The position numbers and the translations under genes are program-made. This document shows positions 3,370-59,847 of a stretch of 64,000 bases of DNA, piece after piece; position 1 is the stretch's first letter, and every line of letters begins with the position of its first letter. Source of the stretch: an uncultured Bacteroidales bacterium (lineage in GTDB: Bacteria; Bacteroidota; Bacteroidia; Bacteroidales; FEN-979); NCBI GenBank assembly GCA_963768805.1, contig CAVYJI010000012.1, forward strand, positions 3,305 to 67,304. The letters run 5' to 3'. The notes under the pieces were generated by a model. That model was not told where the DNA came from and ran no database searches. It saw only the letters and a list, made by a program, of their open reading frames with translations.

Positions 3370-3460
3370 AACAGAAGATCGCTCGAAGGGTGAACGAAGC
3401 TCAATCGAAGCTTAATCGAAGGTCAATCGAAGCTTAATCAAAGGAAGGACGGAAGGAGAC
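3370..3460. repeat. Degenerate tandem array, 8 units of exactly 11 bp with a CGAAG-type core
   Basis: Core pentamers (AGAAG/CGAAG/CAAAG/GGAAG) start at 3373, 3384, 3395, 3406, 3417, 3428, 3439 and 3450, with spacing of exactly 11 bp. The central units are AATCGAAGCTT. The array lies between the convergent queG and ubiX ends. The same unit recurs at 59478-59600. Confidence 0.85.
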
Positions 3461-17769: not shown

Positions 17770-19692
17770 TTGAATAAAGCGCCCTTAAAAAGAGGACAAA
17801 AAAGGATCGGGAATCCAAAGAAGACCCCTCAACATGAGAAACCGGTCAAAACGAACCATCATTATGATTTGGTTGGATTGGCGGCCATACTACTTTTAGG
17901 ATTCATAATATATTCCAATTCCTTCAACTGTTCATTTCATTTTGATGATAACCAGAACATTCTCAACAATGTAAAGATCAGGGTTCTGTGGAATGTGAAA
18001 GCGTGGTGGGAATATAGTCCATCCCGTGCTATAGGATTCTTAACATTTGCTCTTAATTATCATTTCAGCCAATACAGTGTCTGGTCCTACCACCTTGTTA
18101 ACCTATCAATTCATCTTATCAACAGCTGCCTTGTATGGTGGCTCACATTGCTGATCTTTTCCTCACCGGCGTTGAGGGATCACCCCTTGTACAGGCAGAA
18201 AAAAATGATTGCTTTTTTTACTGCACTTCTTTTTGTATCACACCCACTGGCTACTCAATCGGTAACCTACATTATACAAAGAGTAGCTTCCATGGCTGCC
18301 ATGTTCTACCTGTTGTCAATTGCACTCTATATGAGGGCGCGGCTGAATGACGTAAAACACAGGGTAAAATACTTTTTGTTTGCAGGTTCTTTTCTTTCGG
18401 CAGTTGCTGCAATGCTTACCAAAGAAAATGCTTTCACGCTTCCGTTTGCTGTTATCCTTGCTGAATTGTTCTTCTTCAGGACAAGGAAGATATCTGTAAA
18501 TTTTAAAGACTATCGTGTGTTGCTTTTGACTGCAGGATTGATCATTTTTATACTACTCCTCGCATATTTTAAATCAGCAATCAATGTTTTCAACCCGATC
18601 GGGCCTCATAATGGCCACATTTATACGATAACCCCAGTCAATTATCTTCTCACCCAATTCAGTGTCATCGTTAAATATATCCAGATTTTATTTCTGCCGG
18701 TAAACCAGATGGTTGATTATGATTTTCCGATCTCAAATAATTTCTTTGAAATCAGGACATTGGTATCCTTTTTAATTCTTTTATTCCTGATTATATGTGG
18801 AGTTTTCCTATTTAAAAAACAGAGGGTAGTCTCCTTCGGGATTTTCTGGTTTTTCCTTACTTTATTAGTGGAATCAAGTATTATTCCTATTGCAGATGTG
18901 ATTTTTGAGCACAGGACCTATCTTCCTTCATTCGGCTTTTTTCTTATCTTTAGTTCGACCATTTTTCTTTTATTTAAGGATAAATATAAATCCGTGGCAG
19001 TTTTTATTCTCTTGATTATTGCAGGATGGTATTCATGGCTGACATATGAAAGGAATAAAGTTTGGAAGGATGATCTTTCGTTGTGGGGCGATAACGTAAC
19101 AAAGACTCCGAACCTGGCACGGCCTTATTGTAATCGCGGCATTGCCTATGGGGAACTTGGACTTTTTGACAAATCTGTTGAAGATTACTCGAGGGCGATC
19201 GAGATCAATCCGAATTTTCCGGATGCATATTACAATCGCGGGGTTGGATTCGGGAACCTCAACCAGGTGGACAAAGCTATAGTTGATTATACCAAGACGG
19301 TTGAGCTTGATCCCAGTTTTGAAAAAGCATATTATAACCGTGGAAATAAATATGAGTACCTGAAACAATGGGACAAGGCAATATCAGATTACTCAAAGAC
19401 GATCGAGATCGATCCGAATTTTTCATCAGCCTATATCAACCGCGGCATTGCTTATGAGTTCCTAAAGCAATGGGATAATGCAATATCCGATTGCTCCAGG
19501 GCACTTGAGATCGACCCTAATGACAATTCAGCATACTACAACCGCGGCCTTGCATATGCAAACATACAGCAATGGGACCATGCAATAGCAGATTACACAA
19601 GGGCACTTGAGATCGACCCGAATTTTACTAAAGCTTATAACAGTCGCGAGATCGCGTACAAGAAACTTGAAAGTATGAAGAAAAATGAGTAG
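17770..19692 (+). CDS. Polytopic GT-C-like (TMTC/PMT-like) membrane domain fused to C-terminal TPR repeats
   Basis: 640 aa with a TTG start and no upstream in-frame ATG. It has about 10 hydrophobic segments, an FHFDDNQNI loop motif after TM1, then five to six 34-aa TPR units (AYYNRG...). Confidence 0.85.
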   Translation: MNKAPLKRGQKRIGNPKKTPQHEKPVKTNHHYDLVGLAAILLLGFIIYSNSFNCSFHFDDNQNILNNVKIRVLWNVKAWWEYSPSRAIGFLTFALNYHFSQYSVWSYHLVNLSIHLINSCLVWWLTLLIFSSPALRDHPLYRQKKMIAFFTALLFVSHPLATQSVTYIIQRVASMAAMFYLLSIALYMRARLNDVKHRVKYFLFAGSFLSAVAAMLTKENAFTLPFAVILAELFFFRTRKISVNFKDYRVLLLTAGLIIFILLLAYFKSAINVFNPIGPHNGHIYTITPVNYLLTQFSVIVKYIQILFLPVNQMVDYDFPISNNFFEIRTLVSFLILLFLIICGVFLFKKQRVVSFGIFWFFLTLLVESSIIPIADVIFEHRTYLPSFGFFLIFSSTIFLLFKDKYKSVAVFILLIIAGWYSWLTYERNKVWKDDLSLWGDNVTKTPNLARPYCNRGIAYGELGLFDKSVEDYSRAIEINPNFPDAYYNRGVGFGNLNQVDKAIVDYTKTVELDPSFEKAYYNRGNKYEYLKQWDKAISDYSKTIEIDPNFSSAYINRGIAYEFLKQWDNAISDCSRALEIDPNDNSAYYNRGLAYANIQQWDHAIADYTRALEIDPNFTKAYNSREIAYKKLESMKKNE

Positions 19693-19971: not shown

Positions 19972-20033
19972 CAGCTATTCATTTTTTCTGCGGATTGCAT
20001 TCCCCTTCATTTTTATTTAGCAGATCACGGGTA

Positions 20034-20168
20034 TGAATCCCAGGGCAAGCCCTGGACCATAATTCGCCCCAAGGGTCGGGGTATTCTACCCTCCGACTTC
20101 ATCGGGATTGTTCAACTATGAGTTTTAATCCACTATGTTCTTAAAATTGTAGTTTCACGAATAAAAAA
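20034..20168 (+). repeat. Dispersed structured element, copy A (candidate ncRNA or miniature repeat)
   Basis: The 5' arm ATCACGGGTATGAAYCCCAGGGCAAGCCYTGGACC and the ~66-nt 3' arm TCGGGATTGTTCAACTAT...CACTATGTTCTTAAAATTG.AGTTTCACGAATAAAAA are near-identical to 48001-48166. The centre is a different hairpin in each copy. Confidence 0.8.
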
Positions 20169-20196
20169 CCCGGGAGAGGAATGAACCTCTCCCGGG
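20161..20196 (-). terminator. Intrinsic terminator (minus strand)
   Basis: Perfect 11-bp stem CCCGGGAGAGG/CCTCTCCCGGG (20169-20196) with a 6-nt loop. On the minus strand it is followed by TTTTTTAT. Confidence 0.6.
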
Positions 20197-20230
20197 TAAG
20201 CACAAAATGAAAAGCAGAAATTATAATAAA

Positions 20231-20260
20231 CCGGCACTATATAGTGCCAGGCGGTTTTTA
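20231..20260. terminator. Palindromic hairpin with flanking T/A runs (possible bidirectional terminator)
   Basis: CCGGCACTAT/ATAGTGCC(A)GG hairpin, followed on plus by CGGTTTTTA and preceded by an A-rich run. Confidence 0.4.
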
Positions 20261-20502
20261 TTGTTCACAAACCAATGTGCCACTTTCAGTAAGAACGACC
20301 CTTTCATGGAGCCGTAACTGGTTGATGTAAACAGCATATTTGATGCTGCTATCTGCAAGGGTATGTTTTTCGGCCATCTACATTATTACACACGAAGGAA
20401 GTGTTACCCTGATCAAAAATTTTAATATTTTCGACTTTTTTTATTATTCCTTGATCTTCAAGGGTACTAATAAAAAGGGGAACATTTCACTACACGCGAC
20501 CT

Positions 20503-47900: not shown

Positions 47901-47999
47901 TTCATGGCAGAAGAGCTCGTTGCTGTGAATAAAGAACTTGCAGGACTAAAAAAACCGGAAATCAAACCCATATCCCTGGAAGACTTTCAGAAGCAGTAA
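44937..47999 (+). CDS. Sortilin/VPS10-type tandem beta-propeller protein with BNR (Asp-box) repeats
   Basis: 1020 aa with a signal peptide and at least 10 S/T-x-D-x-G-x-T-W Asp-boxes (TTDGGKTWE, SADGGKTWT, STDGGKTF, TADGGKTWS and others). Confidence 0.9.
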   Translation: MTRSILIAVFALCLQALVAQTRVDENTFGDIKARQIGPAIMSGRISAIDAVDNNPALLYVGAASGGLWKSKNYGTTFKPVFDKYCQSIGSIAIDQNHPDTIWVGTGEVWVRNSTSVGDGIYKTTNAGDTWQKMGLDKTERIGKIVVNPKNSNVVFVAALGNLWNSSPDRGLFKTTDGGKTWEKILYVDENTGCSDVAVDPTDPDIVYAGMWEFRRTPWSFSSGGKGSGLFRSADGGKTWTKISAGLPTGMLGRVTLAISPVKSSIVYALIEATKTGLYKSSDKGITWNLASQSEAVNDRPFYFSLLALDTQDTNIVYKPGFSLFKSTDGGKTFSSAAVEGGNYHGDCHPVYIGKKDHDLIYMGTDGGVYYSMDKGNTWRFMRNLPVSQFYHVSIDKADPFNVYGGLQDNGSWYGPSSSSSGITNSSWKSVGFGDGFYVYCDKLDSTILYWQFQGGKIARYSLKTGEYKSLIPFKDKDTKDLRFNWNAPLVFSPDRNTFYLGAQYLYKTNNRGDSWQRISPDLTTDDPLKEKQENSGGLTIDNSSAENHCTIYTINESPLDSLIIWAGTDDGNLQVTADGGKTWSNVVKNITGLPAHTWCSYIEPGRFDKNTAYATFDGHRMGDKTPYVFKSTDLGKTWAPLADTMIKAYCHVIIQDLVNPNLLFLGTESGLYISLNGGKNWANFKGEVPKVPVMDMVIHPREQSLVLATHGRGIMIIDDLTPFRQLSQDLLDSDIKLVKTKDYVIREGSYTQEWNGDDEFIGKVPEESVPILYYMKKRQIFGDLKVGIYDQAGKLMKKIGGGTHKGINQVNWTIRMKPPKVPVSPQMEGEAMAGPEYSPGVYTVRLIRNNDSIETKIKLVPDPKSLYSMEDRDVRQKALMKAYNLLESLAYLDRQEKDIRDQATHLANDVPKPLAKQLKAITIRMDTLHMKLVSVKEGKVTGEERLREKLGFIYGSIMSFRGKPTDSQLSGLDLLSKEFDSNRTAIDNFMAEELVAVNKELAGLKKPEIKPISLEDFQKQ

Positions 48000-48000
48000 A

Positions 48001-48166
48001 ATCACGGGTATGAACCCCAGGGCAAGCCTTGGACCCATATTCCGCCGCAGAGCAGCGGGGTACCTGCCGGCAGGCAGGCAGGTTATACGCTCTGCCTTCG
48101 TCGGGATTGTTCAACTATCAATTTTAATTCACTATGTTCTTAAAATTGAAGTTTCACGAATAAAAA
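48001..48166 (+). repeat. Dispersed structured element, copy B
   Basis: Same conserved arms as 20034-20168. The central hairpin is longer: GCAGAGC...GCTCTGC enclosing ACCTGCC-GGCAGGCA-GGCAGGT, which includes a (GGCA)3 microrepeat. Confidence 0.8.
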
Positions 48167-59477: not shown

Positions 59478-59600
59478 TGATCGAAGCTTAATCGAAGCTT
59501 AATCGAAGCTTAATCGAAGCTTAATCGAAGGTTAATCGAAGGATCCCCGAAGGAACCCCGAAGGAACCCCGAAGGATCCTCGAAGAATTCCCGAGGTATA
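59478..59600. repeat. Degenerate tandem array, 11 units of exactly 11 bp with a CGAAG core
   Basis: CGAAG (last unit CGAGG) starts at 59482, 59493, 59504, 59515, 59526, 59537, 59548, 59559, 59570, 59581 and 59592. The units drift from AATCGAAGCTT (x4) to CCCCGAAGGAA (x3). All cores are on the plus strand, as at 3370-3460. Confidence 0.9.

Positions 59601-59774: not shown

Positions 59775-59847
<73 letters not shown>

Follow-up and report, generated by a model that had tools for sequence, protein, structure and literature searches.

A family of small, hairpin-rich, target-specific mobile repeats as the best-supported identity of a dispersed element in uncultured Bacteroidales

Is a short hairpin-forming segment that occurs twice in a 64,000-nucleotide stretch of DNA from an uncultured Bacteroidales bacterium (contig CAVYJI010000012.1; the whole stretch is called the window here) the gene of a structured RNA, or a mobile piece of DNA? 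The sequence-only reading of this locus put forward a structured RNA and also mentioned a hairpin-bearing miniature element. Its headline gains no support from the present analysis, which found no Rfam match, no promoter, mixed orientation, decaying copies, window copies that fold worse than the consensus and an insertion into a coding gene. The miniature element is the better description of a dispersed, conserved and hairpin-forming segment, but not as a classical MITE, as no terminal inverted repeats were seen. The evidence best supports a new family of mobile repeats in uncultured Bacteroidales that are small, rich in hairpins and specific for a target, and whose ends are not inverted repeats. 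In kind, it is an ordinary selfish repeat.

Two copies in a chromosomal window

The window is chromosomal. Its genes near the copies are housekeeping ones (a TPR protein, a transglycosylase-type PBP, FtsW/RodA, a 1020-aa BNR/sortilin-like protein and polysaccharide synthesis genes), and the nearest named homologues come from Bacteroidota or Bacteroidales MAGs. Copy A is an inserted plus-strand segment of 137 nt at 20026..20162, CACGGG...TTTCACGAAT (nhmmer 6.7e-42; covariance model 136.4 bits), preceded by GAT (20023-20025) and followed by a host A-run (20163-20168). Copy B, detected by nhmmer and the covariance model (138.8 bits), spans 159 nt at 48003..48161, also on the plus strand, between AAT (48000-48002) and a second host A-run (48162-48166). 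The boundaries of copy A were set by a flank logo and a gene-restoration test, described below. A repeat search of the window aligned a 5′ arm of 42 nt (20024-20065 with 48001-48042, 88% identity) and a 3′ arm of 84 nt (20084-20167 with 48083-48166, 89% identity). The two plus-strand copies with shared arms are thus real, as is the TCACG motif that the sequence-only reading saw at both ends, while copy A begins at 20024/20026, about 10 nt upstream of the start at 20034 given there. Two invariant core blocks, CGGGATTGTTCAACTAT (17 nt) and CACTATGTTCTTAAAATTG (19 nt), each occur exactly twice in the window (chance 0.18 and 0.05). Neither nhmmer nor an unfiltered covariance model found a third copy in the window; the next-best model match scored 11.5 bits against 138.8 and 136.4.

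Both copies lie just past the end of a plus-strand gene, as had been pointed out. Copy B follows the stop codon of the BNR gene (47997-47999) after a single base. Copy A lies 52 nt downstream of a 68-aa ORF, between convergent genes, where a strong minus-strand intrinsic-terminator-like hairpin (20168..20197) belongs to the host sequence outside the element and has as its T-tail the very A-run that received the copy. The reconstructed empty sites read ...GAT|AAAAAACCCGGG... for copy A and ...GTAAAAT|AAAAACAG... for copy B. Most likely, both are passive insertions, A into the A/T tail of a terminator between convergent genes and B one base past a stop codon. Copy B also carries a private 20-nt insertion at about 48061-48080, where the loop region of P1 has gained CCTGCCGGCAGGCAGGCAGG, a short repeat of GCAG type. 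The insertion at this locus recurs in two contigs of the same strain (L064, L065).

Short-read (Logan) contigs of the same strain (L066-L069; L084, L085) end 27 nt into copy B, and within copy A. Breaks of this kind usually mean that the assembled genome contains a repeat. No exact empty site was found among the same-strain contigs, all of which carry the element or break inside it. In relatives, the orthologous BNR gene has no element downstream, and about 90 kb of their DNA yielded one 5′-module fragment only; at 77-81% amino acid identity these relatives are too diverged for base-level insertion boundaries. One relative also has an IS21-type pair (an IstB ATPase and a Mu-transposase-like/rve gene; L072, 20381-23069), unrelated to the element, about 7 kb downstream of the syntenic region.

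The window holds further repeats and hairpins. Two minus-strand terminator-like hairpins (20197-20168 and 20250-20231) stand back to back in 20168-20262, between the convergent genes; the latter is palindromic and on the plus strand also reads as a terminator (GGCACTATATAGTGCC, then a T-run). Within the TPR-protein gene (17770-19692), a tandem repeat at 19350-19627 has a 102-nt period, 2.7 copies and 75% matches; it corresponds to the 34-residue TPR repeat, in units of three, and is ordinary. Intergenic arrays of an 11-nt unit lie at 3383-3444 and 59480-59594, on the same strand and 56 kb apart, with CGAAGCTTAAT grading into CGAAGGATCCC. Their period is about one turn of the DNA helix, neither overlaps an ORF of at least 90 aa, and the second is about 180 nt from a minus-strand tRNA gene (59775-59847).

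Copies elsewhere and the insertion site

The element is multi-copy in a clade of uncultured Bacteroidales. At least 30 further copies occupy unrelated intergenic sites on Bacteroidales metagenome and MAG contigs. Pattern scans, nhmmer and the covariance model together gave 34 model matches in the collected DNA, each in a different intergenic context. A metagenome scan with a two-block pattern returned 28 loci, 16 of them on contigs with the name prefix Ga0209777. In this metagenome set the search blocks TTGTTCAACTAT and GTTTCACGAAT are invariant by construction; the 3′ block is also kept in two loci found with a different pattern (L026, L028). A scan of species-representative genomes recovered a full copy in a Bacteroidales MAG (L026) and a variant with the 3′ module only in a Bacteroidetes MAG (L028), and its other eight matches were dismissed as chance 18-mers. 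Viral contigs scanned with three patterns gave chance 16-mers only, blastn against plasmid and phage collections found no copy, and literature searches found no description of the 138-nt element.

Four contigs (L038, L039, L042, L043) bear two to four copies each. The variants include a deletion form (L041), module-only forms (L028, L074 and L038:6787-6882) and others with additional hairpins or an internally duplicated part (L047, L058, L052, L046).

The copy at L038:4244-4387 (minus) establishes the boundaries. It splits a gene for an IS200-like Y1/HUH transposase (Pfam Y1_Tnp, 4e-25; NCBIfam transpos_IS200, 8.8e-18; closest solved structure the ISHp608 transposase, E 6.4e-06), with the frame running ...LLKGESSHWIN | element | KNKFLKKKFEWQDEYFAVSV.... 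Excising CACG...CACG and one AAT restores a protein of 145 aa that aligns without gaps to 11 intact 145-aa homologues, with GESSHWINKNK conserved over the junction. Its close homologues in the protein collection are all 145 aa long, at up to 91% identity, and an intact homologous gene (L075) reads TGGATTAATAAAAAT / ATTAATAAAAAT at the junction point. The restored gene and its intact counterpart therefore define the host site as AAT^AAA, a single AATAAA.

The interrupted gene belongs to a type with an architecture of its own. The 145-aa Y1 gene (IS200-like, RAYT-like) is flanked on both sides by inverted double hairpins of the CCCCGGACTTTAGGCCGGGG and GGGCTTTAGCCC types, an arrangement seen at L038 4055-4703 (minus), L075 6900-7520 and L078 4900-5500 and conserved around intact homologues. 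The protein has more than 7000 homologues at E <= 1e-20.

Conservation across the family has sharp limits, AAT|CACG...CACG|AATAAA. The flank logo has the downstream AAA in 26-27 of 27 copies and the upstream AAT in 22-25 of 25, and beyond these bases the flanks are random. All four flank deviations are upstream, where AAT deviates in 4 of 25 copies (GAT twice, ATT, TAT), against none of 27 downstream. The AAA after the element belongs to the host; the element therefore prefers a particular target. We regard it with high confidence as a site-specific mobile repeat.

AAT stands at both junctions, and could equally be a 3-bp target-site duplication. This leaves some room for a non-autonomous derivative of another site-specific class without inverted repeats, either IS110/IS1111 or a classical transposon with a 3-bp AAT duplication. 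IS110/IS1111 elements have a short core repeated at both junctions and a structured RNA made from a non-coding end, and these bridge RNAs are comparable to the element in size and multi-loop fold. The repeated AAT, a hexamer target conserved on both sides of the insertion point, and a length and multi-loop fold within the bridge RNA range all agree with such an origin. Against it, no recombinase gene lies in or beside the inspected copy-bearing loci, the conserved target is just 6 nt long, and subfamilies vary in compensated stems and not in internal loops. The variation of AAT (4 of 25 upstream, 0 of 27 downstream, a difference that is borderline by estimate) also speaks against a true duplication, which should not be asymmetric. 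The ends CACGGGTATGA and CGTGAAACTTC, as read by eye, are not inverted repeats. Overall, an origin in one of these classes seems quite improbable.

A classical MITE was rejected: reading the terminal sequences, CACGGGTATGA... against ...GAAGTTTCACG (reverse complement CGTGAAACTTC), we saw no terminal inverted repeats, and AAT is the sole repeated flank and asymmetric in its variation.

The fold and what it may be for

The consensus folds at -55.1 kcal/mol (z -5.2, RNA parameters) into a three-way junction, a small hairpin and a long 3′ hairpin. Stem P1, GGGTATGAACC paired with GG-TATTATACCC, closes the three-way junction with H1 (CCAGGG/CCCTGG) and H2 (CGCCCC/GGGGCG; consensus CGCCCC-AGA-GGGGCG, or CGCTGC/GCAGCG). 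In copy A, on the plus strand, P1 pairs 20029-20039 with about 20080-20092 and forms the junction module with H1 and H2. H1 occupies 20040..20055 (CCAGGG CAAG CCCTGG), and four of its six pairs have double changes in the family (for example, CCAAAG/CTTTGG in L046 and L052). Helix H4, with the consensus CCGAC-TTC-GTCGG and a subfamily variant CCGCC-TTC-GGCGG, follows at 20093..20105 (+) as CCGA CTTCA TCGG. The long 3′ hairpin, in the consensus TTGTTC, AACT, CAATTTTAA ... TTAAAATTG, AGTT, GAATAA, comprises helices 6-8 and covers 20107..20162 (+) as TTGTTC / AACT / AGTTTTAA ... TTAAAATT / AGTT / GAAT(AA). In its outermost stem, the internal TTGTTC pairs with the end of the element together with the first host bases (GAAT|AA).

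This fold keeps some of the helices proposed by the sequence-only reading and replaces others. Among those kept, CCAGGG-CAAG-CCCTGG (20040-20055; CCTTGG in copy B) is present as described. A closing helix of ATGAA with TTCAT is contradicted by the family, where the T of TTCGT changes with the A of CCGAC (A-U 20, C-G 11) and not with ATGAA, which is invariant and belongs to the P1 stem. The central hairpins drawn earlier are copy-specific, copy B's centre being the 20-nt insertion plus two substitutions, but the family does have two central hairpins, H2 and P1.

Compensatory changes are present in all eight helices. A MAFFT alignment of 23 copies has 93.5% of cells paired and 11 pairs with double changes, compared with 5.9 +/- 1.4 in shuffles, and slid controls are 33-55% paired. 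The model-fitted alignment of 34 matches, which leans to the structure used to build it, has 94.5% of cells paired and double changes at 27 of 50 pairs, compared with 9.8 +/- 2.0 in shuffles and 5-15 in slid controls. Across alignments, slid controls reach 32-57% paired, against 93.5-94.5% for the element's fold. The covariation noticed between the two copies is thus borne out at the level of the family.

Several switches between subfamilies are clear: CC/GG to TG/CA in H2, A-U to C-G in H4 (20 against 11), CCAGGG/CCCTGG to CCAAAG/CTTTGG in H1, and CAATTTTAA/TTAAAATTG to CCAATTCCGA/TCGGAATTGG in the long hairpin. A second subfamily replaces TTCAACT/AGTTTCA with TTCGACT/AGTCTCA, a compensatory A-U to G-C change. 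Structures backed by covariation lie close to both ends; on one side H1 and the P1 junction begin at 4-15 nt from the end, and on the other the long hairpin stops 13 nt short of it.

Individual copies tell a different story from the consensus. The window copies fold at z -2.2 (A) and -3.0 (B), worse than the consensus at z -5.2. Among non-consensus pair cells, G.U (26) is no commoner than A.C (35), and therefore transitions strike the stems regardless of strand; the earlier statement that G-U pairing is preserved only with the plus strand as RNA fails on this statistic. No more than three consensus G.U pairs favour plus-strand folding, and one of them involves host bases. With DNA parameters the consensus folds as well on one strand as on the other (-28.6 and -28.8 kcal/mol; z -5.2 and -4.8). 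Between subfamilies, compensatory changes maintain the eight-helix fold, while single copies, the two in the window among them, decay.

Could the fold nonetheless serve an RNA? The family might consist of structured non-coding RNA genes or of an RNA module spread by transposition, such as a PATE that carries an omega RNA scaffold for TnpB/IscB in trans with the variable flank as guide. The eight-helix fold with compensatory changes throughout, the three G.U pairs fixed on one strand and the sharp end of the unit against a variable flank, as in an omega RNA scaffold, would all suit this reading, and PATEs often encode omega RNAs (PMC10055086). Yet the copies decay without strand-specific constraint (G.U 26 against A.C 35), and both strands fold equally well as DNA. 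A search of Rfam 15 (4227 families) found no match, in line with the earlier remark that the copies do not resemble tRNA, tmRNA, RNase P or SRP. At the gathering threshold the whole window contained two tRNAs only, and around copy A at E <= 10 the best sub-threshold matches were outside the element or at chance level. There is no conserved upstream promoter and no sigma-70-type promoter match within either window copy, orientation relative to neighbouring transcription units is mixed, and a crude zinc-ribbon filter found no TnpB-like ORF among 96 ORFs. We consider an RNA gene or module of this kind unlikely. In a related version, the entire body of a gene-less transposon would be an RNA scaffold (an omega-like guide or another trans-acting RNA), and the variable DNA next to one end would guide a nuclease or recombinase whose gene lies elsewhere in these genomes. 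The retention of a complex eight-helix fold, three-way junction included, through compensatory changes between subfamilies would then be explained. This too we judge improbable.

Hosts may also recruit such sequences in cis, a role already suggested for REP, BOX, ERIC and Correia repeats. In mRNA the element would then stabilise the 3′ UTR, provide a processing site or serve as a terminator module. Its copies are intergenic and often 0-20 nt from gene ends, both window copies are co-oriented with the upstream gene, and across 26 copies about 17 have the same orientation as the nearest upstream ORF and 9 the opposite one, in a rough, ORF-based count. That 17:9 split is non-significant by our estimate, and three copies are antisense to both neighbours. 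Moreover, the window copies contain no terminator-like site on either strand and are degraded relative to the consensus, and the orthologous genes of relatives manage without the element. Recruitment as an mRNA element has in our view a low probability.

Simple terminator and promoter functions were rejected after scans found no match inside the window copies.

Proposed mobilisation and relation to known repeats

We return to the mobile DNA repeat. Our preferred account, to which we give slightly better than even odds, is a non-autonomous repeat with a unit of about 138 nt and an AAT^AAA target, which would move in trans as single-stranded DNA by means of an HUH/Y1 transposase, in the manner of PATEs. 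IS200/IS605 elements are excised and inserted as single strands. They insert 3′ of a short transposon-adjacent motif without duplication, and require hairpins at their ends (PMC10055086). For ISGst2 the reported motif is 5′-TTTAT-3′, and gene-less PATE-like copies exist that are mobilised in trans (PMC10055086). Read on the minus strand, the present element could match this scheme, with the host motif TTTAT(T) directly 5′ of the unit in 26-27 of 27 copies, a unit end of ...CCCGTGAT(T) and an unconstrained far flank. The conserved flank would then be on one side only, and there would be no duplication.

An HUH/Y1 transposase of the IS200/IS605 type might thus act in trans on the element as single-stranded DNA, with the subterminal hairpins as its recognition structures. 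Hairpin recognition would explain why the fold is selected in transposition-competent master copies only. Selection on a few master copies, followed by decay after insertion, could then produce covariation between subfamilies with no constraint within copies.

The window and the copy-bearing loci yielded neither an autonomous partner whose ends match nor a tnpA or tnpB linked to a copy. By tblastn, the window has no match to a Y1 protein, and none of the 96 ORFs passed a crude filter for TnpB-like proteins (at least 250 aa with a C-terminal zinc-ribbon pattern). The only Y1 gene near copies is the RAYT-like one, which has its own REP-like flanks and is the victim of an insertion; nothing marks that gene as the mobiliser. 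No pairings between guide motif and cleavage site of the IS608 type were recognised by eye. The strand signals conflict, as folding of the plus strand is favoured by the three consensus G.U pairs whereas the one-sided flank argues for the minus strand as the active one, and element strand relative to contig GC skew is unbiased (13:12, on short contigs). The IS200/IS605-type route in particular, with its presumed mobilising enzyme, is thus a tentative proposal to which we give a little less than even weight.

In significance, this is one more lineage-specific small mobile repeat, here in Bacteroidales known only from MAGs and metagenome assemblies. It has practical consequences, as short-read assemblies break at both window copies and covariation screens can take the element for a structured RNA. 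The recent insertions that it marks might be used to tell strains apart. Should the mobilising enzyme be found, the defined target (AATAAA / TTTAT|T) and the ends with their several hairpins would become useful, and an associated guide-RNA-dependent nuclease, if found, would make the element considerably more interesting.

Among known systems, REP, BIME and REPIN sequences, which are mobilised by RAYTs, resemble the element in being GC-rich hairpins that lie between the genes of an AT-rich genome. The same populations also contain a RAYT-like Y1 gene bordered by inverted REP-like hairpins (L038, L075, L078), and the element's H1 and H2 stems (GGGC..GCCC) bear a loose resemblance to these hairpins. 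REPs are single palindromes of 20-40 nt headed by GTAG or CGTC (PMC3733652); they often cluster around a RAYT gene, and REPINs are doublets in inverted orientation. In contrast, the element is an asymmetric, sharply bounded unit of 138 nt that inserts at a defined target; rather than being arranged around a RAYT gene, it disrupts one in L038. A REP or REPIN identity was rejected, as the consensus starts ATCACGGG with neither a GTAG nor a CGTC head and the hairpins flanking the RAYT-like genes differ from it.

Correia/NEMIS, ERIC, BOX and RUP repeats are similar in their length of 100-200 nt, intergenic location and stable predicted RNA or DNA folds, as well as in their modular hairpins with module-only and deletion variants (for the element, L041, L028, L074 and L046). 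MITE-like repeats of known mechanism have terminal inverted repeats and target duplications (TA in Correia), whereas no inverted repeats were seen in the element. Omega RNAs of TnpB/IscB and IS110 bridge RNAs likewise form a structured unit of about 140 nt flush against a variable flank at a transposon end, but the element differs from them in having no associated nuclease or recombinase gene, no Rfam match and no evidence of transcription.

The closest known kind is the PATE, a gene-less derivative of IS200/IS605 elements. The element departs from it in that no autonomous IS with matching ends was found, a three-way junction takes the place of a single imperfect hairpin at one end, the guide-motif pairings known from IS608 go unrecognised and a 3-bp duplication is possible. 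Nonetheless, the two have much in common: both are small and gene-less with no terminal inverted repeats seen, carry strand-specific subterminal hairpins at both ends, insert beside a short fixed motif (for the element, TTTAT|T as read on the minus strand, perhaps without duplication), and are multi-copy, intergenic and presumably mobilised in trans.
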